A stretch of DNA of 64,000 nt from Sedimentisphaerales bacterium (GTDB taxonomy: Bacteria > Planctomycetota > Phycisphaerae > Sedimentisphaerales > SM23-30). Of the stretch, positions 9,690 to 47,346 are shown piece by piece (position 1 is the first letter of the stretch; the number at the start of each line of letters is the position of its first letter). The stretch covers positions 64,001 to 128,000 of the forward strand of contig CAXXFK010000032.1 of NCBI GenBank assembly GCA_963663965.2, read 5' to 3'. Under the pieces are notes generated by a model, which saw only the letters and a list, made by a program, of their open reading frames with translations, was not told where the DNA came from and did not search any database. The position numbers were made by a program, and so were the translations under genes.

Positions 9690-9701
9690 GCATAACTCAC
9701 C

Positions 9702-25823: not shown

Positions 25824-26780
25824 TTATTGAGGTATCGCCGTCTTATCGGTTTCCAGACCGGTCTTGTCCAAACGGGTCACTTTTAAATGAATGGTATCCA
25901 ATTGTTCCAGGTAAGCCGCAAGGTTATCTTTGATACCGGCGTCCATTCTTACCCAGAACAACGCCCGGCCGGTTTGCGAATCCCAACTGATCCTCGAAAC
26001 CGATTTGACTCCCGGCAACTTCTGTAATTCCGTCTCGATATAATCAACATACTTAACTCGTTTCAGGCCATCCACCTGAATCCTGCGCACCAATACCCCA
26101 CTTCCACTTTTTCGTAGAATCTCATAACTGAGTTCACCCGCCAATTCCTCCCCACACTTCTGGACCGTATTTTTCACAGCCTGGGACTGGTTGGTCGTAC
26201 GCTTACCGTATACATAAACATCTTTGGAAGCCAATACCTCGTTTCCGACAATCTGCAACACTTTGCCATCCGCTTCCGCTTCATAAAGATAATAATTGCC
26301 AAACTTATCCTTCTGGTCAACTCTCGTTAATCGGGCCAGAACCATTAAGTCAGCGTCATATTCATCCGCCAGACGTTCTACCGTTTCCGGCCGGGGGTTG
26401 TATCCCGGACATTTGTAAAAATCGAGAACCCGGTAATTCAAATTGACAAAATGACGCTTGATCTCATCCTTGAGATCATCCGCACCCGACTCGCCATCAC
26501 AACAGATCAACAGACGCAATAAGTCCAGCTTGGCCTGGTATACCAGATTACTTTCCTGATCACTAGATATAATATCGCCTGAATTATTATCTGGCCGCAA
26601 GATCGGATCGTCATTCTTTTTCGTTTCAACCGGTGTCGGTAAAATCGGAGGTTCCGTTTCCGGTTGGGTGACGACTCGAGGGTCCTGATAATCCGGTGTC
26701 CGTGGCTTACTACTGCCGCACCCACCGATAAATAATACCGTCAGTACAATACCCAAAGACAACACACACTTTTTCATCAC
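25824..26780 (-). CDS. putative lipoprotein
   Basis: Lipobox FIGGC, Pro-rich linker, AAGGAG RBS. Confidence 0.7.
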   Translation of the reverse strand: MMKKCVLSLGIVLTVLFIGGCGSSKPRTPDYQDPRVVTQPETEPPILPTPVETKKNDDPILRPDNNSGDIISSDQESNLVYQAKLDLLRLLICCDGESGADDLKDEIKRHFVNLNYRVLDFYKCPGYNPRPETVERLADEYDADLMVLARLTRVDQKDKFGNYYLYEAEADGKVLQIVGNEVLASKDVYVYGKRTTNQSQAVKNTVQKCGEELAGELSYEILRKSGSGVLVRRIQVDGLKRVKYVDYIETELQKLPGVKSVSRISWDSQTGRALFWVRMDAGIKDNLAAYLEQLDTIHLKVTRLDKTGLETDKTAIPQ

Positions 26781-31002: not shown

Positions 31003-31854
31003 CTACCGCCGCCGCGCCGGTCCATCCACCCAGACCGGATCAAATTGCAGCTTCAATAACTCAAAACTGGGACCCAGTCGCCTGTATTCACGTAAAAGCT
31101 CATCAAAATTCCGTACCTGGCCACGATCAACCAGCACCTGGATATTATTCTTGATCAGATTACTGTGGATATCCCCGCCACTGGCATTGCCGATATGCAC
31201 CATCTTGTCGATATCCATATTGATCGTATCGAGTTGCTGGTCTTTCTCGAATACCATGATCTGACCATCCGCCCAGAATGCCCTGGTCTGACCGTCTTTC
31301 ATCGCGATCACCCGGAACTCCACCAGCAGAAAACCCGAATCATCCGGCCGGACATGCAAAAGACCGGTTCCCGCTTCACAAGGCCGCAGACTGAAATTCT
31401 TGCACGCCACTCTCTCAAACAGCGGTCCCCCGACTTCCACTCGCACCCGTTCAAAAGGATCATTGGATAGATTCTCCACTTTGAATTCGATTACCCCCGC
31501 CTTCCCTTCCACGTACAACTGATTATAATTGATATACAGCGCCAACCCATCCGAATGAGACATGCCCATTCGAGCCAGGCATCCATCTCCGGCAGAATGA
31601 ACCTCAACAGACTTGCCATCGGCTATGGCCGGGTTTGTTGCCCTTGCCAGGCCATTTTCTTTATCATCATGATATTCAACCACCGGCGGTTGCCCTGACT
31701 CGGACAACGCCTCGCACCTCATCGCTTCGCAATCCGCCGGCGCAGACGTCGATCCTTTCGCTTCGACATTCCGCATCTTGAATCCGCAGAATTGACAAAA
31801 GTTATCTTCGGGATCAACCGGTTTTCCACATTGGGTACACTGATTCATAATCAT
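31003..31854 (-). CDS. zinc-ribbon + beta-sandwich hypothetical protein
   Basis: CTQCG...FCQFCG; central beta-rich Ig-like segment. Confidence 0.7.
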   Translation of the reverse strand: MIMNQCTQCGKPVDPEDNFCQFCGFKMRNVEAKGSTSAPADCEAMRCEALSESGQPPVVEYHDDKENGLARATNPAIADGKSVEVHSAGDGCLARMGMSHSDGLALYINYNQLYVEGKAGVIEFKVENLSNDPFERVRVEVGGPLFERVACKNFSLRPCEAGTGLLHVRPDDSGFLLVEFRVIAMKDGQTRAFWADGQIMVFEKDQQLDTINMDIDKMVHIGNASGGDIHSNLIKNNIQVLVDRGQVRNFDELLREYRRLGPSFELLKLQFDPVWVDGPARRR

Positions 31855-31946: not shown

Positions 31947-33626
31947 CTAAATCTCGCCATCACAATCGCTCAGCGCTTTAAGGCTTTGTTTCAGATGATC
32001 CTCTTCAACCATAATATTGCGTTTCTTACAATAATCATGACAATAGCAGTAATAGCGAGCCGCCTGAATCTGGATCTCATCACTCTTCTTCCGGCCCCTG
32101 GCGTTATTATAAGCCGCATTCAGGAAATTGGCGTACTGAATCACATTCTTGTCCAGATCGTTCGCTATTTTAGTTACGGCCAGTTCTTTTAATTGGGTTT
32201 CCAGATCAATTTTGTCCCCAGGCTTTACTGAGGCGTTTTCGTCAGGACTGGTCTTGCCATCGGCTGTGATCATATAACCGCTGCTGCCGTATTTTATCGT
32301 AAAGGGAACAATCCTATCGAGAAGTTCCGGCTTGCTGTCCTTTTCATAGGTTCCCTTTTTGTAAAAAGAATAGGATAATTCGATCACGCCCATATCTTTA
32401 GAATCCACTTTAAACTGGGTGATATCTCCTGTCACTTGAAAATCACAGGCGCTTAAATCGGCATTTTCTGAACCATCCAGAATAACGAACTGCCTCATGT
32501 TGTTACTGGTAATTCTCCCTATCACATGTTTCGTAAGATACCGGCCTAAGCCGGATTGGTCATCATTATTTACTGTCTTGAAAACATCAATACCCAGTTT
32601 TTCAGGGATTTGACTCTCGATCGTACCGACTGCAGCAAAATAAGCTTGCTCCATCTTTTGATCATTGAATCCCTTATTTTTGGGGACCAATCCGTCGTTT
32701 TCATCGTTCATAATAAGACGAGCCCGGGTCAGATCCAGATAAGTGCGTGCGATATCACCTTTACTGACTGATTCCCCCGCCCGCTCCAGATAATGATTGA
32801 TCGCTTTTGTACGATCAAATTCACTACGATCAATCGCCTTTTTCCTGATCATTTCAAATACGGCAAAATACTCCTTTTTTTCCATATGATCATTAAATTG
32901 AGTATCGAATTCTTCTACGCTATCTTCAATTGCTTTTTTCAAATCCTCAACACAACTCTTACCATCAATCTGCACATCCTTAATTTGATTTATTTCTTCC
33001 ATCAGTTTTTCTAAATTTTCTCGATCTGTATCAGCTTTGAATTTATTGATCTGTTCTTGATAATAGTCTTTCACTGCTTCACACCAACCCTTAATGTTTT
33101 CAGGCTTTTCCGATGGCTTCTGCCAACCGAGTTTTTTGTCAAGAATATTATGGGCTTCCTTCCACTTATGGGTTGCCATTGCTACTTCATACTCAGCTTC
33201 ATAGCTATGATACTCCTCTTCTTTTTGTCCTTTTTTACCTTTGAATGCTTGAATTTTATTTTGCAGTTTTATTGTATCGCCATACTTGTTTTGGCATTCT
33301 TCAAGGGTTGCCAATGCCGTCTCATACTCTGATAATGTTGTGGGAGTTTCCATTCCCTGGATGACCAAATCAGCAATACAGTCAGTGGCATAATCGCGAT
33401 TTTTCTGCTTTTGCATATACTCCGTATCATGAACCGACCAGCCAGACGCTTTCATGTCCTCCATACAATTACATAATTTATTGTAATTGCTTATCCAGTC
33501 TTCCAGAGAAGCATTGTCGGCCTTCGTAATAACATCGATATTCTTGCAACTGGTCGGTAAAGATTTGCATCCCGCCACGATAGCCAGTAAGCAGGTTATA
33601 ACCATGAGTCTGAGAGTCATTACCAT
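31947..33626 (-). CDS. helical-repeat lipoprotein with CsgG-like C-terminal region (paralog of 49512-51362)
   Basis: Lipobox IVAGC; shares KLGIDVF/KIGVADF, GDITQF/GNVTNF and IQAARYYCYC/YAALGYYYC with the 49.5-kb ORF; visibly AT-rich. Confidence 0.7.
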   Translation of the reverse strand: MVMTLRLMVITCLLAIVAGCKSLPTSCKNIDVITKADNASLEDWISNYNKLCNCMEDMKASGWSVHDTEYMQKQKNRDYATDCIADLVIQGMETPTTLSEYETALATLEECQNKYGDTIKLQNKIQAFKGKKGQKEEEYHSYEAEYEVAMATHKWKEAHNILDKKLGWQKPSEKPENIKGWCEAVKDYYQEQINKFKADTDRENLEKLMEEINQIKDVQIDGKSCVEDLKKAIEDSVEEFDTQFNDHMEKKEYFAVFEMIRKKAIDRSEFDRTKAINHYLERAGESVSKGDIARTYLDLTRARLIMNDENDGLVPKNKGFNDQKMEQAYFAAVGTIESQIPEKLGIDVFKTVNNDDQSGLGRYLTKHVIGRITSNNMRQFVILDGSENADLSACDFQVTGDITQFKVDSKDMGVIELSYSFYKKGTYEKDSKPELLDRIVPFTIKYGSSGYMITADGKTSPDENASVKPGDKIDLETQLKELAVTKIANDLDKNVIQYANFLNAAYNNARGRKKSDEIQIQAARYYCYCHDYCKKRNIMVEEDHLKQSLKALSDCDGEI

Positions 33627-33643: not shown

Positions 33644-36577
33644 TTAAAAATTAGTTGTCTCGCGAACCAGATCATACAACGCCGTAAATGGCACCCGCAT
33701 CATAACCCGAAATCCCGTATACGGATATTTGCTGCCGGCAGATACCTCGTTTTTCAGAATGTTAATCATTTTCCCCCGGTCATCCGCATAGCTCCCTCCC
33801 GCTTGTATCGCCATAACACTAGCCGCAGAGCCATTCAGGTCACTACTTCCCGGGCTATCGCTTTCTACCCATTCGGCCACATTGCCCATCATATGAAAAA
33901 GCCCCCACGTATTGGCATAACGAAGTTCAGATGGATCGACCGGTTTCGGCCCAACCAGATCTTTCTGATTCGACCAGCAGTCACCCTGGACAACGATACC
34001 CGGCGCCTGGTTACATTGATAAGCATACTGCCATTGCCTCAGACTGGGTAAGCCGCACTCGCAACCATACCCGATCTGTTTCTCCAACCTGTGGCAGAAT
34101 TCCCGGGCTTCAAAGAATGTCATATTCACCACCGGGTACCTGTTATATGCGGACAGATTATCACCTGACAGCCAGGCCACTCCATCCCGGGGCATTATCC
34201 CCATAAGTAGCTCCCATTGTCTCCTGGTCACCTCAAAGCGGCTGATAAAAAACCATTCGCGCTCATCCGCGCTTCCGGTTCCTGTGGACCGGGCTATTTC
34301 CACCAGTTCCATATCCCCTATTTCGATAATGGAACGTAACCCATTATCCTCCCATATCCCCCGCTTGACCCTCAACGCGTCTGCATGACTGCCATCCAGT
34401 TTTAGCATCAAATGAGCCGCCTTAATTCGTTTTTGGGGATCGGTTTCACCCAGCAGAGGATGGATCTGCCTGATTAAACTTTCCTTGAGTTGATTAATTT
34501 TATCGACATAATAAGCTCCATCCTGGCTGAATTGTCCGACGAATTGTTGATAGTTGCCGATCAATTGGTTCAAACCATCCAGATCCTTCTGGTCTTTTAT
34601 CTGGCCTTCAACTTCTCCGATCCGTTGATTAAAATCGCTCATTCGCTGCTCATGATTCAAACGTTGCTCGGTTTGGGCAATAAGCTCCTGCAACGGCTCT
34701 CCTTCATAACGGGCCAGTCTGGGTATCGACTCTATGACCGCCGTATCCATTCCATCCAGTAACTGAATCGCCTGACGCAGCCGTACTTTCGCGCCCTCAC
34801 GATCATCATCCAGACAGGCGCGCGCCCGCTCATAGCCGGCATTCGTGATGGCTTCATCCGCCTCCAGCGCTTTCAATCCCGCCTCACAGCAGGCTCGCCG
34901 AAAATCCAGGTCTTTAATATACTGTATATGTTTTCCCAGCAGTGGCTCTGGTATTTCTTTGGTATATTTGGCGGCATGCACTTCCTTGACATCATCACAA
35001 ATTCTAATGAATGATTTGAGCGTATCAGACTCGCTGATATCATTTTTAGGCAGATTATCCAGTTCCTGCTTCCATAAGGCCGCGCTCTTCTTGAACATAC
35101 TGTCAGATAAAGTTGCGATCACACAGTTCAAATATTTATAGTTCGGATATTTGCCAAGAAATTCATAAACATTGTTTATCACTATCTCCAGTCGATCTAC
35201 TTTACCGCCATCGGTTGTAATGTTTTCCAGATTATTACTGATATCTTTAAATACACTATCCGCATGGATATTCTCTTCTATGACATTCAATAATGAAATG
35301 ACCTGAGGGCGCTTGGTATAATTTGGACATTGCTCCAGGATAAAATTCAAACTGGCTTTTGCCTGATCATAGGCATCCCGGTAATAATCTTCCCGCCCCT
35401 GACGATAAAGCCCGTCCGCACGCCATTCCTGATAAGAACGAGTCAACTCCGCCCGGTTAAAAAATAATCCCGCCAGCATAATCCCCAGGATAAACGTACC
35501 GATCGTCCGCAATACCTTATGCGAGGGTTTGGCAACCGGGGTAAAGTCATCCGAATCATGCGTATCCCAGCTGTCCGATGAGGTTTCGGACATCAATGGC
35601 TTAGGCTCCTCCACTGGCGCTTTTTTATTATCCGCCTCCTGAGCCGGCGGTTCCGGCGTGCTCTGCATGCGCTTATAAGCCTCTAACAGCAAATCCACCA
35701 GTTCCCGCGCCGAACCCGGACGCTCCAGCGGCTTTTTCGCCAGCGCGTAGCGCAGCGCCCCGTTGATCTCTTCATTGTAACCATCAATCGGATCCGGCTG
35801 TTTATTCTTGATTTGCTCGCGCAAATCGCCCCGGTAAAACGGCGGATGCCCCGCCAGACACTCATACATCAACGCCCCGAAGGAATAGATATCCATCAGC
35901 GAGGTCGGCTGCTCGCCCAGCAGTTGTTCCGGGCTCATATACGGCAGCGTCCCCGTCGCCTGCTCCTTGCCCGTTACCCGCGTATAGGTGTCTTTCAACT
36001 CCCGCGCGATCCCGAAGTCCAGAATCTTGATCTGATATCGATCTCCGTACACCATGACATTGGATGGCTTCAGGTCGCGATGCAGAACATGACAGCTATG
36101 GGCGTAATCCAGCCCGATGGCGATCTGGCGGCCCAGGTAGATCGTATCGCTCAACCCGAGTTTACCCCTGGTCTTCTTCGCCAGGATCTGTTCCAGGGTT
36201 CGTCCCGGAATATACTCCATCACGATAAAATACTGAAACCCATCGGTATGCATATCGTATAACCGCACAATATAAGGATGGGTCAGTTGCCGCGTGGTCT
36301 GGGCCTCCTGCTTCAAACTCTTGATCGCCCTGGGGTTACTGGCCAGCGTCGGCGGAATAAATTTGATCGCCACCTGCGCCCCTTCCAGCATATCATCCGT
36401 GGCCAGATAGACCATCCCCATTCCCCCTTCACCCAGCTTGCGCAAGATCCGGAACCGGTCTGCCAGCAGTTTGCAGGCATCACCACCCTCCGTCTTCACC
36501 GTGGGCAATCGGTCCAGCGTATGATAAACATCATCCAGATCCTTCTTTAACAGATTTTTATTCGGGAATTCTACCAT
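33644..36577 (-). CDS. membrane Ser/Thr kinase with divergent FGE-sulfatase domain
   Basis: LGEGGMG, VAIK, HRDLKPSN, DFG, GTLPYMSPEQ; TM; LPSLRQWQYA, HMMGNVAEW, GGSY, GFRV. Likely ATG at 36577, ~13 nt after the ESCRT-III-like stop (ORF track start 36631). Confidence 0.9.
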   Translation of the reverse strand: MVEFPNKNLLKKDLDDVYHTLDRLPTVKTEGGDACKLLADRFRILRKLGEGGMGMVYLATDDMLEGAQVAIKFIPPTLASNPRAIKSLKQEAQTTRQLTHPYIVRLYDMHTDGFQYFIVMEYIPGRTLEQILAKKTRGKLGLSDTIYLGRQIAIGLDYAHSCHVLHRDLKPSNVMVYGDRYQIKILDFGIARELKDTYTRVTGKEQATGTLPYMSPEQLLGEQPTSLMDIYSFGALMYECLAGHPPFYRGDLREQIKNKQPDPIDGYNEEINGALRYALAKKPLERPGSARELVDLLLEAYKRMQSTPEPPAQEADNKKAPVEEPKPLMSETSSDSWDTHDSDDFTPVAKPSHKVLRTIGTFILGIMLAGLFFNRAELTRSYQEWRADGLYRQGREDYYRDAYDQAKASLNFILEQCPNYTKRPQVISLLNVIEENIHADSVFKDISNNLENITTDGGKVDRLEIVINNVYEFLGKYPNYKYLNCVIATLSDSMFKKSAALWKQELDNLPKNDISESDTLKSFIRICDDVKEVHAAKYTKEIPEPLLGKHIQYIKDLDFRRACCEAGLKALEADEAITNAGYERARACLDDDREGAKVRLRQAIQLLDGMDTAVIESIPRLARYEGEPLQELIAQTEQRLNHEQRMSDFNQRIGEVEGQIKDQKDLDGLNQLIGNYQQFVGQFSQDGAYYVDKINQLKESLIRQIHPLLGETDPQKRIKAAHLMLKLDGSHADALRVKRGIWEDNGLRSIIEIGDMELVEIARSTGTGSADEREWFFISRFEVTRRQWELLMGIMPRDGVAWLSGDNLSAYNRYPVVNMTFFEAREFCHRLEKQIGYGCECGLPSLRQWQYAYQCNQAPGIVVQGDCWSNQKDLVGPKPVDPSELRYANTWGLFHMMGNVAEWVESDSPGSSDLNGSAASVMAIQAGGSYADDRGKMINILKNEVSAGSKYPYTGFRVMMRVPFTALYDLVRETTNF

Positions 36578-36590
36578 GACACACCTGCTA

Positions 36591-37190
36591 TTATCCGTTG
36601 GTTTCCTTCTTAAGTTTCGTTTCGATTTCACGCAGCATCAAGTCAATATGATTCTCGGTCGCGCTGGCCTGACCTTCCGCCTCCCGCCCAATCAATTCAT
36701 CGATCTGTTCGATCCCCGGCAGACCATCATCATCCGGTTCATAATCCAGCGTACTGCCGCTGACCCGGTCCAGCACCATATTCATGGTCCGGTCCATCTG
36801 CCGGGCGTTGGCCATCGCCAGATTCAACTCTCCGATCGTCTTGGTCAGATCGATGTTCTTGAACACCGACGCGATCGATTTGGTCGCCGCCTGCAATCCC
36901 TTGGCAAACTCGCCATAACTCTCGATCCGCTCCTTCGTCTGCACCATCGCTTCAAACGTCAGCAGCGCGCTCTCCAGCCGCCGCCGCTCGGCCATTGTCT
37001 GCAATAGCAGCTTCGCCAGCTTCTGATAATTCTCCGGATCCCCGATCTGGCGTGCCCGCACTGCTTTTTCGCAGTAGCCCCGCTCATGCTTCTTCAACTC
37101 CTTGATACGGCGCCGGTGCAAATCCAGCACATTCTGGATCGCCAGATCCCGTTCCAACTGCTTCTGCTGCTTGCTCTTAAATAATCCCAT
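36591..37190 (-). CDS. ESCRT-III/Snf7-superfamily-like protein (Vps2/Vps24/Did2-like)
   Basis: 199 aa, all-helical; MGLF start; basic hairpin (EKAVRARQIGD..NYQKLAKLLL...RRRL); FAKGLQAATKSIASVFKNIDL; acidic linker (YEPDDDG..IEQIDELI); terminal amphipathic helix HIDLMLREIETKLKK; adjacent to the Vps4-like ATPase. Confidence 0.72.
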   Translation of the reverse strand: MGLFKSKQQKQLERDLAIQNVLDLHRRRIKELKKHERGYCEKAVRARQIGDPENYQKLAKLLLQTMAERRRLESALLTFEAMVQTKERIESYGEFAKGLQAATKSIASVFKNIDLTKTIGELNLAMANARQMDRTMNMVLDRVSGSTLDYEPDDDGLPGIEQIDELIGREAEGQASATENHIDLMLREIETKLKKETNG

Positions 37191-37242
37191 TAAATAAACT
37201 CCTGTATCAAGTTTGCCTGGTTGTCATTTTGCCGGTTATCCA

Positions 37243-38431
37243 CTAAGACACCCCGTTCCCCCACCTCTCAAACCGTTCCAGATCCTCACCTCCCGTTCCC
37301 GGCCGGATCCGCTCCAGCGCCGCCTCCAGATCTGCCACCCGGATCGCTTCCACCTTCAGTTCATAACTCTCCAGCGCCACCCGGCCCGACTCCGCCACCC
37401 GCGCCAGATCCGGGTTCGCCCGCGAGATCATCCGCCGGATCAGTTCTTTCCCAATCTGCTCCAGCTCCCGGCCGCTATAACCCTCCGTCCGGGCAGCCCA
37501 CTCAGCCAGATCGCCCTCAACCTGATACCCCCGCCGGGTCAGCAGCAACTCCAGAATCGTCTCCCGCGCCGCTCCATCCGGCAGATTCACATACGATAGC
37601 TTGCCAAACCGCGACAGCACCGCCGAATCGATCAGCCACGGCTTATTCGTCGCCGCGATCACCAGCACCAGCCGGCCATCCGACTTGCTCTCGAAGCCAT
37701 CCATACTGGTCAGCAATTCCGCCAGCACCCGCCGTTCAGCGCCATCGGCCCGCCCATCCCGGTCCGGCACCAGCGACTCAAAATCATCCAGAAAGATCAC
37801 CGATGGATGCATCCGCGCCGCCAGTTCAAACACCGCGTTAATCAGCTTGCCCGACTCGCCAAAATACTTGCTCAGCAGATCGCTCACCTTACACGAAAAA
37901 AACGTCGCCTCCAGCCCTTTCGAAATCGCCGCCGCCACCAGCGTCTTGCCCGTTCCCGGCGGGCCGTACAGCAGCAGGTTGGCATGCCGCGGCAGCCCCA
38001 CCCCCTCCGGCCGCTTCGCCAGCGCCAGTGCGAACGTCTCCTTGATAAACTGCTTGATCTCATCCAGACCCGCGATATCTTCCCAGCCAACCTTCGCCTT
38101 GCGGATCAACTGCCGCGCGTTCTCAAAATAACCCGCCTCCTCCGGCCCCACCGCCGCTTCCACATCTCTATCCGCCCCATCCGCCTCAGTATCCTCAGCC
38201 GAGCCTCCCGCGCGCAACTGCTCCGCCAGCTTCTTCAGCTTCTCCGCGTCCGCCAGCCGCCTGGCCCGCACCGATTCGCTCACCGCGCTCCTGGCATACC
38301 GGGCCATCAACTCACCCGCCCGCGCATACCGCACCGCCGCCGCCTCACCCTGACCCGCCGCCTCCAGCGCACGCGCCTCCACCAACACCCCGTTCCAACT
38401 GCTCACCGGTTACACCACTCAAATCTACCAT
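37243..38431 (-). CDS. Vps4/CdvC-like AAA+ ATPase with N-terminal MIT-like domain
   Basis: MIT-like ARALEAAG..EAAAVRYARAGELM...SVRARRLADAEKLKKL; VGWEDIAGL; GPPGTGKT; SDLLSKYFGESGKL; PSVIFLDD; AATNKPWLIDSAVLSRF; TEGYSG; Vps4_C-like DLEAALERIRP...EDLERFERW. ATG 38431 with an AAGGA RBS needs removal of one G from a G run; the ORF track start is GTG 38406. Confidence 0.85.
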
Positions 38432-38511
38432 AAAATTCTAATTTCCTTGTTCTAAAAGTCAGGCTTTTCCAAAGTACTATCCAAATTCCATCCATCTCCC
38501 ATCGCATTACT

Positions 38512-39149
38512 GAGGTCCAAAGGACCGCCAGTTCCTAGCCGGGGGCGTCAGCCCCCGGAAAACGAGCTCCCCCCACACAACAAGCCCCGGAGGGGCGACA
38601 GAATTAATCAAAAATATAACGCTTATCATATTCCACTCCATGTTTATCCAGCAACTGGATCAACTCCGTTTCATAACTCATCACCTCATGATGCGCCTGC
38701 TGGCCGTTGACATAATCGACAACCTTCTGCAAACCGGAATACGAAACCGTAAACGACGAATACCCTGTTTGCCAGGCAAAAAACGAACAGCCGCCATCAG
38801 TCTCTTTATACCATTTCGAGGAATTGGCTTTCACATCTCTGACAAAATCAGCCAGACACTCTGCCGGCTTCAGTTTCGCCACCAGATGAATATGGTCCGG
38901 CATACCATTGGCAGTAACCAAAACCTGACCTCGATTCCTGACAATCCCGCCAAGATAATCACACAAGCGCGGAATCGTTTCAATATTAATCAATCGCCTC
39001 CTCTCTTTGGTCGAAAAGACAATATGATAATATAACTGAGTAAAAGACACTAATAATATCCTTTCGCCCTTTCAGGGCTTTGTTTTATTCTACTATCCTG
39101 TCCCGGGGCCTCACGGCCCCGGCTAAAAACTCGCGGCCCGTCGGGCCTC
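38512..39149 (-). mobile_element. IS200/IS605-family (REP-associated, RAYT-like) element: tnpA flanked by ~90-bp imperfect inverted arms
   Basis: Arms 38512-38601 and 39061-39149 are imperfect reverse complements, each with three hairpins (e.g. CTAGCCGGGGGCGTCAGCCCCCGG). Confidence 0.8.
38604..39050 (-). CDS. tnpA: Y1 (HUH) transposase
   Basis: YHIVFSTKER, DHIH (HUH), KANSSKW, FAWQTGYSSFTVS, YVNGQQAHH. Confidence 0.93.
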   Translation of the reverse strand: MSFTQLYYHIVFSTKERRRLINIETIPRLCDYLGGIVRNRGQVLVTANGMPDHIHLVAKLKPAECLADFVRDVKANSSKWYKETDGGCSFFAWQTGYSSFTVSYSGLQKVVDYVNGQQAHHEVMSYETELIQLLDKHGVEYDKRYIFD

Positions 39150-39232
39150 TCCAATGGACGATGTTATTTTCATGTCAATTGACAGATCACATCTTCATTT
39201 CAACAATCATTTTTTTCTTAAAATCACAATTC

Positions 39233-39345
39233 CCAAAGAACTATCCAAATTCCATCCACCCCCCATCGCACCACCGAAGCCCGAAGGTCGAAGATCCGCC
39301 TCAGGAGGAACCGCCAGTTCCTAGCCGGGGGCGTCAGGCGTCAGA
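39233..39345. repeat. partial REP arm with 38-nt leader and inserted ATCCGCCTCAGGAGGA
   Basis: Near-identical to 39832-39944. Confidence 0.75.
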
Positions 39346-39418
39346 GTCTTTATTGTATTTTTCAATCACACATTTCCAAAGAACTATCCAAACTCCATTC
39401 ATCCCCCATCGCACTCCT

Positions 39419-39632
39419 GAGGTCCAAAGGACCGCCAGTTCCTAGCCGGGGGCGTCAGCCCCCGGAAAAAGACTCCCCCCACACAACAAGCCCCGGAGGG
39501 GCGACAGAATATTTATTCATTTCTTTCAATCTCAAACAAAACGCTTTCGCCCTTTCAGGGCTTTGTTTTATTCTACTATCCTGGTCCGGAGCCTCACGGC
39601 CCCGGCTAAAAACTCACGGCCCTTCGGGCCTC
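39419..39632. mobile_element. non-autonomous (MITE/REPIN-like) copy of the tnpA element
   Basis: Both arms are near-identical to 38512-38601 and 39061-39149, but only 36 nt apart with no tnpA between them. Confidence 0.8.
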
Positions 39633-39831
39633 TCTAATGGCTAGGTTATTTTTAGCGCTATTGACGCTTATCATGCACATTAAACACAAATCAAGAACAC
39701 CTCTTATAACTATCCATTCCATCCTTCTTCTAAAATAACAAATCGCCAAAACACTTCAAATAACCAAATCTCCTCATCATCATTTCATATACAGAAATGA
39801 TGAAACTTCTTTTTCTTATAATCTCATATTT

Positions 39832-39986
39832 CCAAAGAACTATCCAAATTCCATCCATCCCCCATCGCACACCTGAAGCCCGAAGGTCGAAGATCCGCCT
39901 CAGGAGGAACCGCCAGTTCCTAGCCGGGGGCGTCAGGCGTCAGAATAAAAGCACGCTCCCATCTCAAGGCCCGAAGGGCCGAAAGA
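39832..39986. repeat. REP arm variant with 38-nt leader
   Basis: Same leader and CTAGCCGGGGGCGTCAG core, ending in the GGCCCGAAGGGCC hairpin. Confidence 0.75.
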
Positions 39987-40095
39987 TTTTCCCTTTCGCC
40001 CTCCACCCAAATATCCCTATTATCAAAAAAACTTCTATTCAATTTTTCATACTCCAGGGGACCTACCCCCTAGCCCCCCAAAAAGAGTAACCAAA

Positions 40096-42321
40096 TCAGT
40101 CCAGACCTCCAACGCACAACACCCGAAAACCTAAATCGCGGCAGACAGGGATGATCCAGTAGCGATTGGCGGTGCGGCAGCTGATTTCACCATTGTTCCA
40201 ACTGCCGCCGCGCAGAACACGGCGGGCGCCACTGGTCGGCCCAATTGGATCACTAGCTGGACTTTTACTGTAATAATTCTCATCATACCAGTCCAGACAC
40301 CATTCCCATACATTGCCATGCATATCATATAATCCCCAGCCATTCGACTGCTTCTGGCCCACTGGATGAGTCTTACCACCACTATTGTCATCATACCAGG
40401 CATAATTACCCAACTGGCTCACGCTATCACCAAAACTATAGTCTGTTTTCGTTCCAGCCCTACAGGCATATTCCCATTGCGCTTCCGTTGGCAAAGTATA
40501 AGTCTTTCCTTCCAACTCACCTAACTTCTTACAAAATGCCATGGCATCTTCCCAACTCACACTCTCCACCGGATTGTTATCACCTTTAAAACTACTGGGA
40601 TTCGTCCCCATCACTTTTTCATATTGGGCCTGGGTCACTTCATACTGTCCCAGCCAGAAGCCCTTCGTAATCTTCACCTGATGAACCGGCTTCACATTAC
40701 CCTTTCCATTATGACTCCCCATCATAAACTCACCCGGCCCGATCCACACCAGTTTCATGCCGATACGATTGGTCATCAAATCACCCGGTTCGGGCCCATA
40801 GTATCCAGCAATTTTCTTATATAATGACAACGCCTCTAAATGTCCCGGTTCCAATTTTAAAAGTTCATCCAGCGCCTTAAGGGCCTCTCTTCCATCAGTC
40901 TTATTATCCTTAGCGCGCGCCAAAATTAACAGCCTGTCAATCTTTTGACGAACAATAATTTTTTGCGGCCGCTGGATTCTTTTCGTTTTCTCTTCTATCG
41001 CGTCCAGCATGCGGCTCAATCGCCTGGCCGGCTGACTGCCATTGGCCACGCCGGCAATGGCGGCTGATATCTCCCGGTCTTTATCATCCAGATAGTCAGC
41101 CGCTTCTTGCCGGGCCTTCACCATTGCCTCGGCAAATTGATAGTCTTCCAGTCCAAGCTCTTCATCCAGGTACATCTCCCATAACGCTTTCAGATCAATA
41201 AAGACACCAGACTGACCGGTTCCAGATGAACTTGATTGCGCCTCGATCTGAAAATCCCGCCAGTATTGACGCGCCTTTTCGAGATCTTCACCACTCAGGC
41301 CGACCGCGATCGCCAGCGGCATCCGTCGCGCGTTTTCTGACGCGTCCAGTCGCGGTTGCGGGATATGCTCCCAGGCCACGGAGGGCTTGTTGCGGACTAT
41401 CCAGCGGCGCACGCCATCAGCCACATATTGATTCAAGGTGCCCACTGTGACAAAGCCGCCTTCATCCGCCTTCGCCTGTCCGCGTAAACCCTGCAATAAA
41501 AAATGGGTAAATACCCCATAACCGCTGTCGGGGTCTTCATAACTGAGTTGACCAATGCCGCAACTGGTCAGGGTAATCTGGCCCCGCCCGGCGGCAAAGG
41601 CTTTCATAAAGGCTTCACTCATCGCCGGCCCGGCGCCACCCGACTTGCTGCGGCCCACCCGTTCCCGGCAGGCGTCCAGAATAACCATCTTCTTGCCCGC
41701 CCTGGATTCACTGATGGTATCGGTCAATATCTTGGAACGCAGGGCCGTATCGCTCAGATAGGCGCGCAGACCATCGGACGGCATGATATAAATGCTGTTA
41801 TCATCTTCAAAGCCATGTGAACTGACTGATACGATTACCAGGTCTTCACCGGATACCGGCATGCGGGTGGCAATAATCAGTCCATTCAGGATATCGCTTT
41901 TAGCCGCGTTTTTCAATTCCGCGCCGGCAGCTTTCAATCGCCGCAACTGCTCTACGGCAACCGGCAGGGTTGGCTGACCGGACAGACACAAAATACAGTT
42001 ATTGGCCGGAATCAGTTTCAGCTCTTCTACGAAAAGATACGCCTGACTGACCGCGTCATTCACCGCGCAATTTAATGAGGCCAGACTCGAATCTTTGGTA
42101 AATTCATTAACTCCGACAAATAGTCCGGCGCTATTACTCCTGGCCAGTGGAGTAACAGCCTGGAGTTCATTTTTTGGTAATTCCACTACCATGAGTGCTT
42201 TGGATCGATCTGACTCTGTATCGGCATTCACAGCGAATAGAAGCCAATGATTCAGTATCAACAATGCTGCTGCAAACCATAATTTCTGAGATCGCATATC
42301 ACTACTCCATATCCATCCCAT
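40096..42321 (-). CDS. exported caspase-like (peptidase C14) protein with C-terminal FGE-sulfatase domain
   Basis: Signal peptide; SVSSHG and ILDACR catalytic dyad; GVFTHFLLQGLRG; LPTEAQWEYACRAG, LYDMHGNVWEW, RGGSW, GFRV. Confidence 0.9.
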   Translation of the reverse strand: MGWIWSSDMRSQKLWFAAALLILNHWLLFAVNADTESDRSKALMVVELPKNELQAVTPLARSNSAGLFVGVNEFTKDSSLASLNCAVNDAVSQAYLFVEELKLIPANNCILCLSGQPTLPVAVEQLRRLKAAGAELKNAAKSDILNGLIIATRMPVSGEDLVIVSVSSHGFEDDNSIYIMPSDGLRAYLSDTALRSKILTDTISESRAGKKMVILDACRERVGRSKSGGAGPAMSEAFMKAFAAGRGQITLTSCGIGQLSYEDPDSGYGVFTHFLLQGLRGQAKADEGGFVTVGTLNQYVADGVRRWIVRNKPSVAWEHIPQPRLDASENARRMPLAIAVGLSGEDLEKARQYWRDFQIEAQSSSSGTGQSGVFIDLKALWEMYLDEELGLEDYQFAEAMVKARQEAADYLDDKDREISAAIAGVANGSQPARRLSRMLDAIEEKTKRIQRPQKIIVRQKIDRLLILARAKDNKTDGREALKALDELLKLEPGHLEALSLYKKIAGYYGPEPGDLMTNRIGMKLVWIGPGEFMMGSHNGKGNVKPVHQVKITKGFWLGQYEVTQAQYEKVMGTNPSSFKGDNNPVESVSWEDAMAFCKKLGELEGKTYTLPTEAQWEYACRAGTKTDYSFGDSVSQLGNYAWYDDNSGGKTHPVGQKQSNGWGLYDMHGNVWEWCLDWYDENYYSKSPASDPIGPTSGARRVLRGGSWNNGEISCRTANRYWIIPVCRDLGFRVLCVGGLD

Positions 42322-42351
42322 CAGTCTGGGACACCTCGATAACGTGACAGC

Positions 42352-42981
42352 CTAAACGCCTTCTTCCTTCTCCATCTCCTCCTCCACCTTAAACACCTTC
42401 TTCTCAATATCATCCCACGCCCGCTCATCCAGTTCCTGGCCGCCCGCCTCTTCCATCGCCGCCATAATCTTTTCGATCTCCGGATCGACTGTTTCCACTT
42501 CGCTATCCCCTTCACCCAATATATCCAGCAGCCGCCGGCTCTGCGCGTCCCCCTGCTTGCTCTTCACCTTGACATCCAGCATGAATTTCTCCAGCGCCTC
42601 CGGCTCCACCGAACTGATCATCCCCCATAGCCCCTCGCTCTTGAGCAGGTTCTCCCGCTTCTTGATCTGCAACAGTTTCCCCGTCACCATAATCTGCCGG
42701 CTGACAATTGTATTAGCCTTCAACACATCCTTCACCTCATCATCCACCTGCTTGATCTGAATCGCCATCGACTGCCGTTCGATCGTACTGGTTTTCTTGC
42801 GCCCCTCCTCAAACAACGCCCGTTTCTTCGCCTCCAATTCCCGTACCTCCTTGATAAACCCATCCTGAACGGTTTGTAACCGGATCTTCTCATTCTCCAG
42901 CTCATTCGTACTCAGCTTCTCGATCGCAACCAGTTTCCGGTTCCCGCCAAACAATCCCGCTAATTTATTCAACATGTTCAT
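42352..42981 (-). CDS. second ESCRT-III-like helical protein
   Basis: ~209 aa; N-terminal amphipathic MLNKLAGLFGG; long helical hairpin; acidic tail (DSEVETVDPEIEKIM...WDDIEKKV). ATG 42981 follows a GAAGGA RBS (ORF track start 43029). Confidence 0.55.
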   Translation of the reverse strand: MNMLNKLAGLFGGNRKLVAIEKLSTNELENEKIRLQTVQDGFIKEVRELEAKKRALFEEGRKKTSTIERQSMAIQIKQVDDEVKDVLKANTIVSRQIMVTGKLLQIKKRENLLKSEGLWGMISSVEPEALEKFMLDVKVKSKQGDAQSRRLLDILGEGDSEVETVDPEIEKIMAAMEEAGGQELDERAWDDIEKKVFKVEEEMEKEEGV

Positions 42982-43039
42982 AACGCATTCCTTCGTCATC
43001 TGGTTTATGATTAATGTAGTTGTAACCATTTAAACACTA

Positions 43040-43801
43040 TCACCCTTCCACCCTCCGCTTAATCACCATCCCCACCTCCTTAATCTTCACTACCGTCAAC
43101 CGGTGATCCTCCTCCGCCAGCTTCCGCGCCACTTTTTCCACCAGCCCAGACTCCCAGTAATGCTCCAGCGCCAGCTGTTCCAACCCGGCAAACTCCCTCA
43201 CCCGCAATTCATGAACCATCGCGTCACGACAGGCCGCCTCCCGCTCCTGCCGGGTTAAACCCGAAAAGATCGGTACATGACGCAGTATCAGTTCCTGTTT
43301 CCTATCCCAGACCAGCGAGGTAATGTCCGGCCCGATCAATATCGGCAGCACCCGTCCTCCCGGCCAGCCGCTGCCCGGCGGATCGTTAACCACATAATCC
43401 CGCGCGCCCTGATTCCACCCCGTCGGGCTATACAATCCCAGTATCAACGCCTCATTCGCCATTCCCAATGACTGCTCCCGTTCCTTTAATAATGTATGTA
43501 AATCACCCTGGCCCATCGGCTCATCATACCCACCATCAGCCACCAGCAGGTCATACCTCAACACCACCTTCCCAGCCAATTGTACCCCCGGCAGACTCTC
43601 CCCAAACAGTTTCTTTACCGGCGCCAGCCGTAATCCCAACTCTTTCCCCAAAGGGTAACGCGCACATAACTCATTACGCAGCAACTGGTTATTCGTCAGT
43701 TTGCGTAAAATAGCGATCCCATCCCCCTCCCGTAACTGGATTCCACCGGCCAGATCAGACAGATTCGCCCGCAACCGGCTGATAAACTGCTCTTCCTTCA
43801 A
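43040..43801 (-). CDS. hypothetical protein: alpha/beta (restriction-endonuclease-like) domain + C-terminal winged helix
   Basis: LILGLYSPTGWNQGARDYV; C-terminal helix-FAGLEQLALE-helix(SGLVEKVARKL)-beta hairpin (LTVVKIKEVGMVIKR). First gene of the cluster. Confidence 0.55.
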   Translation of the reverse strand: MKEEQFISRLRANLSDLAGGIQLREGDGIAILRKLTNNQLLRNELCARYPLGKELGLRLAPVKKLFGESLPGVQLAGKVVLRYDLLVADGGYDEPMGQGDLHTLLKEREQSLGMANEALILGLYSPTGWNQGARDYVVNDPPGSGWPGGRVLPILIGPDITSLVWDRKQELILRHVPIFSGLTRQEREAACRDAMVHELRVREFAGLEQLALEHYWESGLVEKVARKLAEEDHRLTVVKIKEVGMVIKRRVEG

Positions 43802-44320: not shown

Positions 44321-45028
44321 ATGAAAACCAAAGTAACAATCCTGGCAGCAATCGCATCCAGCCTGATGGTGTTTCTGCTCGCCGGATGCGGTTCAAAACC
44401 CGCATCTAAAACCCAGACAACCGTTTTGCCCTCCGACGACCAGGCATCGTTAATGATGGCCGAGGGCATGATCCGCGAATCGCTGTTCGACAGCGCTCTG
44501 GCCGAGTTAAACAAGGTCACCAATAAGTCCGGTAGCAATTACCACTATCTGGTGGCCCAGTGCTATCTCGGTCAGGACAATACCGCCGAGGCCTACACCC
44601 ATATCGAACAGGCCCTGCAGAATAATCCCAACAGTTACCGGAATCTGTCAGTATTGGGCCAGATCCGGTTCCTGCAAAAACAGTACCCCCAAAGTGCTGA
44701 AGCCTATCGCCAGGCGCTCAATTATGCCGCCAATGATGAAGTTCGCAGCCAGTTGCAGTACAACCTGGCCATGACCTGCATGGCGGCCGGCCAGTTTACC
44801 CGCGCCGATGAACACTTTCAGGAGTACCTCAAGCATCAGAACTACGTCACCAACGATGACAAAATGACTGCCGGCGCCATCGCCTACGCCGTGGGCGACC
44901 ATAAACGCGCCTTTAATTACTGGAAAGACCTTTCCACCGATGACAAAAACAAAATCCTCGTCTCCGTACAAAGTGAATCCGAACAATATCAGAATCTCGT
45001 AACCTCCAGTGAAGTAGAAAGGTGGTAA
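44321..45028 (+). CDS. TPR lipoprotein
   Basis: GGAGG RBS, lipobox LLAGC, several TPRs. Confidence 0.85.
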   Translation: MKTKVTILAAIASSLMVFLLAGCGSKPASKTQTTVLPSDDQASLMMAEGMIRESLFDSALAELNKVTNKSGSNYHYLVAQCYLGQDNTAEAYTHIEQALQNNPNSYRNLSVLGQIRFLQKQYPQSAEAYRQALNYAANDEVRSQLQYNLAMTCMAAGQFTRADEHFQEYLKHQNYVTNDDKMTAGAIAYAVGDHKRAFNYWKDLSTDDKNKILVSVQSESEQYQNLVTSSEVERW

Positions 45029-45033
45029 TCACT

Positions 45034-46023
45034 ATGAAACGCTCAATAACAATTCTCACACTCGTTATCTCTGTAATCGCTCCGACCGCTCTGTTCGCGC
45101 AGTCGACAGTTGAAGGAACCGGCTACCTGCCCAAATTCGAACCCAAAAGCAACATGAAAGTTTTGGAGGAAAACCTCAAAAAGACCGGCGAACTGGCGGA
45201 CCTGCTCAAAAATGGCAACGACGAACTCAGCGAAGCCGTTAAACAGTACAAAGACAACCGCCAGCCGGATACCAAGGCCCGCGTCTACAACCTCCTGGGA
45301 GAATTAGCCAATAAAACCGTCACTCAGATCGACAACATTGTTTCCAACAAAGACCGCATGAAAGACGGCATGCTCGAAATGAACTATAAAATGGCCAAAA
45401 TCAAGGCCTCGCTGGATGAACGCAACAACGCCTTCTCCCAGCACGACAAAACCATCCACCAGGAAGCGGACGAACTGAAGAAAGAAATGCAGGATCTGGC
45501 CCGTCAAATCAAAAATGATCCGGAAAACCAGGAACTCCGCTTCCAGTTCCGCAGCAAACTGATCAAACTCTACCACCTGGACAAACGCTTGAAAACCATC
45601 CAGGCCCACAAACGCCTGAATACTACTTTCGGCGAACAACTGGCCAAGATCGACACCTTCTTCCGTGACATGAATCAGAACATGGATCATTTCGTGATGA
45701 ACCTGAAAATCCAGAAGCAATCGCTTATCGAAGAAATCAAACTGATCCAGTATTCCGCCGAACTCAATGACTGGCTGCTGGCCCAGACCGGTGACAGTCA
45801 ATCGGCCTTCGCCATGATCGGCAAAATCAAGGACCTGAGTTCCGCTCTGAAACAGTTTGAAGTCGCCACCGACGCCATGATCTGCATGGATGACATGAAT
45901 GAAATCATCCAGACCCTTCCCGATGTCAGCGATCTGCTGGGTGAATCCAGCGGTCTCAACCTCAATGATCTGGATAAAATGATCGATACTTTCGCCAATA
46001 TGGATGTCACTGCCAGCAAATAA
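45034..46023 (+). CDS. exported coiled-coil protein
   Basis: Signal peptide ending ALFA-Q; continuous heptad-like K/E/L/M-rich sequence. Confidence 0.75.
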   Translation: MKRSITILTLVISVIAPTALFAQSTVEGTGYLPKFEPKSNMKVLEENLKKTGELADLLKNGNDELSEAVKQYKDNRQPDTKARVYNLLGELANKTVTQIDNIVSNKDRMKDGMLEMNYKMAKIKASLDERNNAFSQHDKTIHQEADELKKEMQDLARQIKNDPENQELRFQFRSKLIKLYHLDKRLKTIQAHKRLNTTFGEQLAKIDTFFRDMNQNMDHFVMNLKIQKQSLIEEIKLIQYSAELNDWLLAQTGDSQSAFAMIGKIKDLSSALKQFEVATDAMICMDDMNEIIQTLPDVSDLLGESSGLNLNDLDKMIDTFANMDVTASK

Positions 46024-46061
46024 TGATAGTAATATTAACCTACCTTCTCAAGGAGATAGCC

Positions 46062-46727
46062 ATGAAAAAATTCAATACCTTAATCGTTCTGATCGTAACC
46101 CTCGCCGGCATCGGCGCGTTGCAGGCCCAGGAAACCCAATCCGGCTCGCTTATTCCCGAACTCAATAAGACGAATAACGGCGAAACGTCACTGACCAATG
46201 CCATTGAACCAATTCAACAATATTATCAACAACTCGGTTGAAGGCGAATACGACAGCCTCAAACAGAATAACGAGTACAACAAACAACGGATCGTCGAAC
46301 TGCAAAAACAAATCGAACTCAAAAACAAAGAGCTCGAAATGATCCCTCAGATCGTCAGCCGCCAGTTTGATGAACTCATGCAGCTGTACGCCAACGCTTC
46401 TCAAAAAGAAAAGAACAAGGCCGCCGAAGACCTGCACCAGCGCTGGCAGATGCGTGAAAAAGAAATCCAGACGGAACTGAAAATGCTCAACGAACAATTG
46501 TCGCTCGCCCAGACTCGCGAAATCGATTCCAACCAGGAAATGGCCCAGATCCGGATCAAGTCAGCCATTGAGAAATATCAAACCTGAACATCCCGGAAGA
46601 ACCGGCCGCGAAACCCGGCCCCGCCGGCCCCAACGAGCCCTATCAGATACTCATGGATATGTCTACCCGGCGTAAACTCGCCCAGATCCAGATGTTCTGT
46701 CCCATCAAAGTCAAAACCATTCTCTGA
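46062..46727 (+). CDS. exported coiled-coil protein, two apparent frameshifts
   Basis: AGGAG RBS, signal peptide ending ALQA-Q; ORFs 46023-46241 and 46198-46587 plus a tail ending TGA at 46727. Confidence 0.6.
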
Positions 46728-46764
46728 TTATTGCAAATTCTCGCCCAGGAAAGGATATGGTATC

Positions 46765-47346
46765 ATGAAAACGCTACTTACACTCACAGGCAACATCGAT
46801 CCGATTATGGCAGCCCTCTTTCTCTTGTCGGTTATTTGCCTGGCGGCAATTCTGGATCGATTCCTCTTTTGGCTCTGCTCAGGACTTCGTTATCGTCGCA
46901 TCGATACGGAATTGTTTGGCCCCACTGAACCCGGCCGCCGCCTCTTATTGCAGCGTCTGCAAAACCGTAGGAACCTCCATTTCACTGAAGCGGTTATGGT
47001 GGCCGGGCTTCAGGAGCCCCATAGTGTAAGTCGTCTTCATCAGGCTGCGGGAGAACAGATCGAGTTGATGTCCAGGCGACTGGGCACGCTCGATCTGATC
47101 GCCCGTATCGCCCCCCTCGTCGGGATTCTCGGCACCGTCGTCGGCATGTCCCGCAGCTTCGGCGGCATCAGCGCCATTGTCACAGCCTCTCCCGACGCCA
47201 TCAGCCAGGGCATCAGCCTGGCCCTGCGTACCACTGCCTGCGGCCTGGTTATCAGCCTGGCAGCCACCATTGCCGCGGTCACCTTCCGCAAAAAAATCCG
47301 TCAGGCCTCGCTGGATATGGGGAGGATTATCTGTGAATTCGAATAA
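46765..47346 (+). CDS. exbB: MotA/TolQ/ExbB proton-channel protein
   Basis: APLVGILGTVVGM..SF...GISLALRTTACGL. Confidence 0.9.
   Translation: MKTLLTLTGNIDPIMAALFLLSVICLAAILDRFLFWLCSGLRYRRIDTELFGPTEPGRRLLLQRLQNRRNLHFTEAVMVAGLQEPHSVSRLHQAAGEQIELMSRRLGTLDLIARIAPLVGILGTVVGMSRSFGGISAIVTASPDAISQGISLALRTTACGLVISLAATIAAVTFRKKIRQASLDMGRIICEFE

Follow-up and report, generated by a model that had tools for sequence, protein, structure and literature searches.

A candidate ESCRT-III/Vps4 gene cassette of archaeal type in a Sedimentisphaerales bacterium

Described ESCRT-III/Vps4 systems and the bacterial locus

Polymers of ESCRT-III proteins (ESCRT, endosomal sorting complexes that are required for transport) deform membranes and are disassembled by the AAA ATPase Vps4 through contacts of its MIT domain (PMC7619361, PMC8281802). 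Systems combining vps4 with ESCRT-III genes have been confined to archaea and eukaryotes (PMC10936438), Snf7-type proteins have been placed in the same two groups (PMC8281802), and, according to a review of 2025, bacteria appear to lack a Vps4-like ATPase (PMC7619361). Here, a gene cassette is described in which a predicted Vps4-type ATPase is encoded together with two predicted ESCRT-III proteins (termed E3a and E3b) and a winged-helix-family protein, within a stretch of 64,000 nucleotides (nt; the window) of contig C32 (172 kb) from a bacterial genome of the order Sedimentisphaerales (7.2 Mb, 94.6% complete, 5.4% contamination). Its identity as an ESCRT-III/Vps4 system is held with high confidence, and its sequence features point to a bacterial copy of an archaeal-type system whose nearest relatives are euryarchaeal 'Main-clade'-like systems. 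All genes of the island lie on the minus strand and all positions are those of the window. The four core genes are as follows.

43040..43801, minus strand: winged-helix-family protein of 253 amino acids (aa) (profile match to archaeal loci and alignment A8)
42352..43029, minus strand: E3b, second ESCRT-III-like protein (225 aa when started at the first ATG; the probable start at 42981 gives 209 aa)
37243..38431, minus strand: predicted MIT and AAA Vps4-type ATPase (Walker B DD, pore loop YF, LSRF arginine region)
36591..37190, minus strand: E3a, predicted Vps2/24 (A-type) ESCRT-III protein of 199 aa (family profiles and AlphaFold2 model)

A first-pass annotation of this DNA had described an ATPase gene next to the gene of a 199-aa helical protein. 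Both open reading frames (ORFs) were found on the minus strand where it had placed them (37243..38406 and 36591..37190), with 52 nt between the ATPase stop and the E3a start where about 50 had been noted. Judged from the sequence, the module is larger than first noted and comprises at least four core genes.

Main-clade loci of archaea encode Vps4, a Snf7 pair, a winged-helix protein (arCOG09748), arCOG08177 and kinases; kinases go with the Main/FHA systems and an SPFH-zinc-ribbon protein with the Meth_adaptin systems (Makarova 2024, PMC10936438). The archaeal loci compared here were tentatively assigned to the Main clade from gene content and protein size, not from shared accessions. The window cassette resembles them in that its ATPase falls into a 100/100 clade with Halobacteriota Vps4 and shares the LSRF signature with them, that E3b and the winged-helix-family protein are homologous to genes beside Halobacteriota ATPases, and that kinases and FHA proteins are encoded in the locus. 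It differs in having a bacterial host with two membranes, a winged-helix-family protein without the long N-terminal half, and a DD Walker B motif. Whereas most archaeal loci fetched carry two E3b-like genes, the window carries one B-like gene and the A-type E3a; it adds FGE-fused kinases, a caspase-like gene, lipoproteins and an SPFH gene, and no arCOG08177 (Cas2-TBP) candidate was recognised among the island ORFs, no profile search having been made for it. The first-pass annotation had proposed an archaeal- or eukaryote-style module; the archaeal type was borne out, but the nearest relatives are euryarchaeal (Halobacteriota), not eukaryotic, Asgard or CdvBC systems.

With the ESCRT-IIIA/B and Vps4 systems of Asgard archaea and eukaryotes the cassette shares an A-type plus B-like pair, a homologous MIT domain and an E3a that best matches CHMP2A, CHMP3 and Asgard A-type proteins, whereas its ATPase is sister to the Asgard and CdvC group and not inside it, its MIM1 motif is non-canonical, and no ubiquitin or ESCRT-I genes were seen. 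Like CdvABC of TACK archaea it encodes a MIT-AAA protein and ESCRT-III in one operon, and the NCBIfam CdvC model spans the window MIT region; unlike CdvABC, the ATPase lies in a separate clade, no CdvA was seen and the spread is too patchy for division. PspA and Vipp1 belong to the same superfamily (PMC8281802), but the window ESCRT-III has a Vps4 partner and neither of its two ESCRT-III families matches PspA. Closest among bacterial reports is the MIT-Vps4 with a TPR-6TM partner, an archaea-to-bacteria Vps4 with Planctomycetes among its hosts, in which snf7 is displaced, whereas the window keeps two ESCRT-III genes and the winged-helix-family gene; a transmembrane-fused bacterial Snf7 beside a two-domain AAA ATPase represents a different architecture (Ravi 2024, PMC11237479). 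The web application accompanying that paper may list further bacterial members. Term searches in the ten supplements of PMC10936438 returned no planctomycete or Chloroflexota name, and no description of a bacterial operon of Vps4 and a Snf7-type protein was found in the literature covered, which lay largely outside subscription journals.

Identity of the core proteins

The ATPase ORF (37243..38406) yields 387 aa from an in-frame GTG at 38406. It matched Pfam AAA with E 2e-37, and its translation holds SVRARRLADAEKLKKL, SDLLSKYFGESGKL and ATNKPWLIDSA, i.e. the motifs that the first-pass annotation had quoted. The three-helix MIT-like N-terminus that it had also proposed was recovered: the AlphaFold2 model shows N-terminal helices at residues 2-16, 20-38 and 44-65, and in HHalign a profile of 113 ATPase N-termini matched 26 Asgard Vps4 N-termini, taken from Pfam-MIT-positive loci, with P 95.5 and E 1.5e-8 over 84 columns. 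The same profile reached P 98 against 13 Halobacteriota N-termini and P 74 against 20 CdvC N-termini, while helical controls (PAN coiled coils and ESCRT-III hairpins) stayed at P <2. When it was run over 5,586 ORFs, the top 75 were all AAA-motif proteins or Asgard MIT-positive loci. The NCBIfam CdvC model aligned from residue 11, across the MIT region, with E 1.5e-46, far below the model cut-off. Matches of the N-terminus in the PDB were weak (NRBF2, Sulfolobus Vps4 and VPS4A MIT, E 0.1-4).

Phylogenetic analysis with IQ-TREE was based on 68 AAA domains and 273 columns, 55 of the 123 rows having been dropped, and contained neither eukaryotic nor viral rows. The window ATPase grouped with other bacterial and metagenomic rows (99/95), this group joined 11 Halobacteriota ATPases (100/100), and both together joined Asgard Vps4 and CdvC (99/96), apart from Cdc48 D1/D2, PAN and FtsH. 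FastTree analysis of all 123 rows agreed, with a support of 0.957. One Chloroflexi ATPase sat apart, among archaeal rows (88/92). Placement of the ATPase in the Vps4 clade, as first proposed, therefore held in the tree, and the protein is classified from its sequence as a Vps4 with a single AAA domain and a MIT domain, lying within archaeal Vps4. A PDB sequence search with the ATPase returned mostly two-domain Cdc48; identity as a Cdc48 fragment was rejected on the grouping with archaeal Vps4, apart from Cdc48 D1/D2. Fold searches left p97, spastin, fidgetin-like, katanin and Vps4 tied, did not separate the AAA subfamilies and barely tested the MIT region. Among the matches listed, scans of genome contigs and viral sequences gave mostly generic AAA proteins; no viral locus entered any profile or tree.

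E3a was modelled by AlphaFold2 (pLDDT 79) with helices at 7-49, 52-109, 116-145, 161-172 and 178-198, that is, as a long helical hairpin followed by helices 3-5, as ESCRT-III requires. The halves of the protein carry net charges of +8 (N-terminal) and -8 (C-terminal), in agreement with the basic and acidic halves noted before. Homologues with 59-73% identity made up 56 of 220 candidates, and a profile search over 1.84 billion representatives retrieved 202 proteins at E<=0.001, from the best 150 of which 100, mostly full-length, were aligned with E3a to give a family of 101 members. Pfam Snf7 matched 31 of these 101 at E<=0.01, and each other family among those listed (25 of 31 families) matched one member only. 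Searched against the PDB, the 101-member profile found CHMP2A with E 2.5e-7 (145 gap-free columns) and CHMP3 with 3e-6, together with CHMP1B, Snf7, CdvB and CdvB2; the second rank went to a designed repeat protein, and up to E 1 neither PspA nor Vipp1 chains appeared. Because the 101-member set may hold archaeal or eukaryotic rows, the search was redone with 25 bacterial sequences, and eight of the nine matches to E 5 were again CHMP3, Snf7 or CdvB (best E 0.0017), with no PspA chain among them. HHalign gave P 93-96 against Asgard A-type ESCRT-III and P 16-69 against the B-type, these type labels being assigned by motifs, and P <5 against a PspA set of three sequences only. These family matches indicate that E3a is an ESCRT-III protein of the Vps2/24 type (Snf7/CHMP branch), as the first-pass annotation had read it; identity as PspA was ruled out, since the family profiles match CHMP2A, CHMP3, Snf7 and CdvB without PspA.

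A wide fold search with E3a gave generic coiled coils, with CHMP4B and Shrub (Z 8.8-8.9) among the ties. Neighbours in the ESM Atlas, taken as a lead only, were mostly bacterial clusters (Chloroflexota, Planctomycetota, Bacillota), and Snf7 was recognised, below the reliable level, on 13% of the members of the first cluster. For the complex of ATPase residues 1-75 and E3a residues 150-199, the prediction reached a score of 0.02 and a mark of 0.32; the controls were not folded, and the outcome is evidence in neither direction.

For E3b, a search with the single sequence found the ESCRT-III-like pair beside Halobacteriota Vps4. HHalign gave P 90 against pooled Asgard ESCRT-III, 65 against the B-type and 22 against the A-type, and P 71 against the E3a family, while a PDB search with E3b returned no ESCRT-III chain. 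Homology of E3b to ESCRT-III is thus indicated by sequence, with weaker support than for E3a. The 253-aa protein gave no Pfam match, no meaningful PDB match and, by family profile, no credible PDB relative. A profile of six bacterial sequences of its family matched six archaeal loci with E 9e-28 to 8e-9, in each case within the C-terminal half of proteins of 538-651 aa encoded beside Halobacteriota Vps4. The arCOG09748 protein is 608 aa in size and carries a C-terminal winged helix (PMC10936438). Homology and sizes suggest that the 253-aa protein is probably of the arCOG09748 type; a search for arCOG09748 motifs in the supplements of PMC10936438 gave no result. In 12 archaeal loci fetched, an ESCRT-III-like gene lay near the ATPase in nine and a winged-helix-family gene in six, counts obtained with profiles partly built from those same rows.

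Several observations weigh against reading the cassette as a working system of this kind. The Pfam families expected at first were recovered only in part: Vps4_C (E 0.0011) and Snf7 (E 0.0012, single sequence) both stayed under their curated cut-offs, as did Snf7 on a Sulfolobus acidocaldarius control, and Pfam MIT did not match the window ATPase. With E3a, Foldseek returned nothing at E<=0.001, its top natural rows (CHMP1B, CHMP2A and CHMP3) all having E>0.05. The canonical MIM1 pattern is LxxRLxxL[KR]; in the last helix of E3a, I182, L186 and I189 are invariant and keep the hydrophobic spacing, but M185 and E190 occupy the Arg and Lys positions, so that of the proposed MIM1-like helix the amphipathic character and the spacing stand and the canonical residues do not. 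Canonical catalytic motifs of Vps4 are a DE Walker B and an RR finger. Here, a single arginine (LSRF) is found where Asgard Vps4 and CdvC have RRF, and of the top-tier homologues 50 of 51 have DD as their Walker B motif, against 67 of 69 with DE in the tier below; DD is specific to the window subgroup, whereas LSRF is normal in the archaeal sister group and common to the window ATPase and the Halobacteriota. Owing to DD and the single arginine, ATPase activity of this type may be low. In the ATPase gene, moreover, the reading frame is broken by one base near the start, where the coding strand has four consecutive G (38388-38391). The cassette probably moved between domains by lateral transfer; archaeal monophyly in the 100/100 clade was not rejected (AU test, p 0.14), and the direction of transfer was left undecided for that reason. 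As to function, that of euryarchaeal ESCRT systems is itself a proposal (vesicle formation, protein sorting; PMC10936438), and euryarchaeal Cdv proteins have been described as without recognisable interaction motifs (Frohn 2022, PMC8970359).

Gene neighbourhood, recurrence and distribution

The remaining genes and elements of the island are listed below.

40096..42321, minus strand: caspase-like (Peptidase_C14) and FGE-sulfatase-like protein, inserted in the cassette (Pfam)
38459..39986: IS200-like Y1 transposase (38604..39050, minus strand) among repeated palindromic elements (Pfam Y1_Tnp and repeats)
33644..36631, minus strand: Ser/Thr kinase with membrane segment and FGE-like domain (Pfam); the ORF shares 41 nt with the end of E3a
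31947..33626, minus strand: probable lipoprotein of no family (signal peptide with Cys, by eye)
31003..31854, minus strand: zinc-ribbon protein (Pfam); homologue in the same order in locus L104
30146..30982, minus strand: double-FHA protein (Pfam FHA, two stretches); homologue in locus L104
27486..30035, minus strand: Ser/Thr kinase and FGE-like protein (Pfam)
25824..26780, minus strand: conserved probable lipoprotein of 318 aa; homologues 41-43% identical in L103, L115, L117 and L122
24662..25810, minus strand: LpoB-like exported protein (Pfam LpoB); homologues in L103, L115, L117 and L122
22746..24590, minus strand: SPFH/Band-7 protein with zinc ribbons (Pfam Band_7, E 8e-12); homologues 55-62% identical in L103, L104, L115, L117 and L122
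19272..22397, minus strand: Ser/Thr kinase and FGE-like protein, closing the island (Pfam)

The stretch with the transposase lies directly upstream of the ATPase gene and outside the conserved module. It contains several repeats of 100-117 nt with GC-rich palindromes flanking the transposase, a distant paralogue of which was seen on contig C19, and a repeat core of 24 nt with four exact copies, all on contig C32; we take these to resemble a REP-associated transposase with its repeats. Caspase genes similar to that at 40096..42321 flank the cassette in L115, kinase genes adjoin it in most related loci, and for the lipoprotein at 31947..33626 no homologue was present in the related loci searched. 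Third codon positions carried 53-64% G in the four core genes (37243-43801) versus 23-41% in six accessory genes. Beside the cassette, a divergent operon on the plus strand (44321-48801) encodes a TPR lipoprotein, coiled-coil proteins, a MotA/ExbB-family protein and, by eye, an ExbD-like protein; the first two of its proteins had no homologues in related loci. A second caspase and FGE-like gene lies at 51636-53546 (minus strand), 9 kb upstream of the cassette.

Twelve close loci were compared, from two genomes and ten metagenome contigs; several are short, and L103 and L122 are near kin. The ATPase gene occurred with E3a in 9/12, the order winged helix, E3b, Vps4, E3a in 5/12 and also in the Chloroflexota locus L001, and an SPFH gene in 5/12. 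Close homologues of the ATPase and of E3a are named Sedimentisphaerales, Phycisphaerae or Planctomycetes, from which a Phycisphaerae planctomycete was inferred as host, in line with the first assignment to a planctomycete. Distribution was patchy: E3a was found in three of 200 other genomes of the order (one match being a fragment) and in 0/24 of the family, the ESCRT-III family in 2/251 genomes of the Chloroflexota phylum, and the window ATPase type in 14/251 genomes of the archaeal phylum around a Methanophagales genome, a further 13 matches there being Cdc48-sized. In L115, the 5′ end of E3a is present a second time as a short fragment (L115:7401-7529) upstream of the full gene, which suggests local duplication or rearrangement of the island. 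A Rhodospirillaceae contig (L002:9950-11191) carries a solo MIT-AAA ATPase of the window type beside an aquaporin-like gene (by eye); the ORFs listed around this ATPase include no ESCRT-III gene. A Chloroflexi locus (L253:366-4543, genome G465) holds a winged-helix-family gene, two E3b-like genes and a Vps4 branching among archaeal rows, possibly a separate transfer; G465 also has two copies of a second ATPase type, each beside an E3a gene.

This second MIT-ATPase, with an RPGR motif, was found in 79 of 300 other genomes of the class, and a more distant relative of E3a in 75 of the same 300. By comparison of the lists, both were present in 74, the ESCRT-III relative only in one and the ATPase only in five; one of these five, the unpublished G283, was used for this count alone. 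Related genomes among them are not independent, and the matches fall in six families; the pair was near-universal in four (f17, 18/18; f8, 10-12/12; f20, 10-12/12; f11, 35/43), whereas neither query matched in f6 (0/42), f9 (0/44), f2 (0/23) and f7 (0/22). In loci of the second type an E3b homologue is likewise encoded, as is a protein in which the 253-aa family is fused to an E3b-like part. In the IQ-TREE analysis the second ATPase was sister to all archaeal Vps4 rows sampled (100/93), and its union with the window lineage was rejected (AU p 0.004). It was not found in the window genome and lies beside the first type in L001, L103 and L122. From these sequence data it may be suggested, as a tentative and rather improbable reading, that bacteria carry working ESCRT-III/Vps4 machines of two separate ATPase lineages, the first being the sporadic window cassette and the second one that could serve membrane fission in FtsZ-less division, or the shaping of internal membranes, in those Phycisphaerae.

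Further loci bear on this second type. L106:3116-9542, L110, L113 and other loci of the same class show a conserved Phycisphaerae cluster of a zinc-ribbon kinase, a winged-helix-family/E3b-like fusion (about 470-515 aa), E3b and E3a, often with the second MIT-ATPase. In L001:59-7936 (Chloroflexota), both ATPase types were seen with an HTH_17-fused winged-helix-family protein and a PQQ-propeller/TPR/zinc-ribbon protein, the latter reminiscent of the PQQ and IG partners found in adaptin-type systems of archaea. In an archaeal locus (L261:5377-6576, G734), a Vps4 of the window clade has an N-terminus that matches the MIT profile of the second bacterial type (E 3e-5), a hint of domain exchange.

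Proposed function and alternative explanations

The cassette is proposed, with modest confidence and by analogy, to encode a machine of accessory function that buds or repairs the inner membrane under the control of phosphorylation. What the sequence itself supplies is the identity, linkage and conservation of the genes; the mode of action is modelled on the known family. The winged-helix-family protein and the SPFH scaffold would tag a site on the inner membrane's cytoplasmic face, where E3b and E3a would co-polymerise into spirals. Hexameric Vps4 would grip the acidic C-terminal helices via its MIT domain and pull subunits through its pore, so that the filament would constrict, cut the neck and have its subunits recycled. 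The membrane would thereby bud away from the cytoplasm, into the periplasm, or a lesion would be closed. Activation of the machine, or the choice of phosphorylated cargo, would fall to the membrane kinases and FHA proteins, and the function would be accessory and not that of cell division.

Two explanations question the cassette itself. A chimeric assembly, or contamination with archaeal DNA, might be suspected from the 5.4% contamination of the genome bin, yet the same contig carries the bacterial genes IspG, RibF and LpoB-like with smooth GC content and skew, two further genomes of the order carry the same cassette on long contigs (281 kb and 68 kb), and the ATPase and E3a each have about 50 homologues at 58-73% identity, several of them named Planctomycetota. 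The four-gene order recurring on other bacterial contigs likewise argues against a chimera, which is refuted in practice and has become extremely improbable; the first-pass annotation had named it as a way in which its interpretation could fail. Decay of the window copy is a somewhat more open, though still quite unlikely, explanation, according to which the ATPase gene is either a pseudogene or truncated at MIT helix 1, and is separated from its promoter by the transposase insertion. The ATG at 38431, at which that annotation had ended the feature, opens the homologue-like MVDLSG (a DLS motif is present in 32 of 50 top-tier homologues) and has an AAGGA element about 12 nt upstream, but that frame stays open for 28 codons only, the remainder of the gene lying in a different one. 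The transposase and repeats directly upstream also fit decay, as does a GC content of 0.65 in the ATPase gene, the highest of ten island genes measured. On the other hand, the other core ORFs are all open, the ESCRT-III genes are 63-74% identical to their homologues, and the 387-aa product from the in-frame GTG still models three N-terminal helices. An aminotransferase ORF in the window (pyridoxal phosphate-dependent; 9600-11007, minus strand), unrelated to the cassette, matches only 351 of the 434 positions of its profile, and its coding sequence apparently runs on in a different frame; with this second broken frame, an assembly indel is plausible as the cause, although the ATPase copy of this genome may be damaged. 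The public contigs did not cover the site at 38388-38391, the bridging contig being probably that of the source sample itself, and a frameshift census that counted 0 events in 27 loci missed the window break itself and is therefore insensitive. ATPase genes are intact in related loci, so decay would concern the window copy and not the family.

The other two explanations accept the system and give it a different role. It might be the membrane arm of a conflict or stress-response island. Attack by a phage, predator or toxin would then be detected by the kinases, caspase-like proteases and FHA proteins, which would set off ESCRT-III to mend the membrane or else to kill the cell. The patchy spread in the order, the family, the Chloroflexota and the archaeal phylum would suit this role, as would the kinase-FGE and caspase genes, which vary in number and position between loci, and the lack of any PspA (PspA_IM30) family match in the whole window genome and in genomes G316 and G378. 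PADLOC, however, recognised only the generic AAA core (IetA and TRIP13 models) and none of ten other island proteins, and among the best 80 viral loci no close relative of the ATPase was found, the best reaching 39% over the AAA core only. This role, which overlaps with membrane budding or repair in mechanism and differs mainly in the trigger, is regarded as possible, if on the unlikely side. An FtsZ-independent division machine of Phycisphaerae, comparable to CdvBC in Sulfolobus, is considered very unlikely for the window cassette. It would fit the absence of any FtsZ/tubulin family match in the 94.6% complete window genome, the fission of Phycisphaerae without FtsZ by an unknown mechanism (PMC6952346), and the near-universal presence of the related ESCRT-III family with the second MIT-ATPase in four families of the class. 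Of 200 genomes of the order, however, 197 gave no match to the window cassette, a rarity that argues against cell division; four families of the class matched neither query and must also divide; no CdvA Pfam match was obtained among the island proteins scanned; and the kinase load of the island resembles that of non-division archaeal systems. With no CdvA seen and a presence of 3/200 in the order far from near-universal, CdvBC-type division was rejected for this cassette.

Reading the cassette as an archaeal-type ESCRT-III/Vps4 system, as the first-pass annotation had interpreted it, is thus supported by sequence: E3a did not resolve as PspA, the ATPase did not fall outside Vps4 or lack a MIT domain, and the contig did not prove chimeric. 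A conserved multi-gene cassette of this kind contradicts the view that Vps4 is absent in bacteria (PMC7619361), contrary to current reviews, and would represent a small bacterial ESCRT system acting on bacterial lipids in a two-membrane cell. The related, widespread system would be a concrete candidate for the way in which Phycisphaerae without FtsZ reshape and divide their membranes (PMC6952346), and, if the reading of two bacterial ATPase lineages is true, the pairing of Vps4 with ESCRT-III may not be an archaeal invention.

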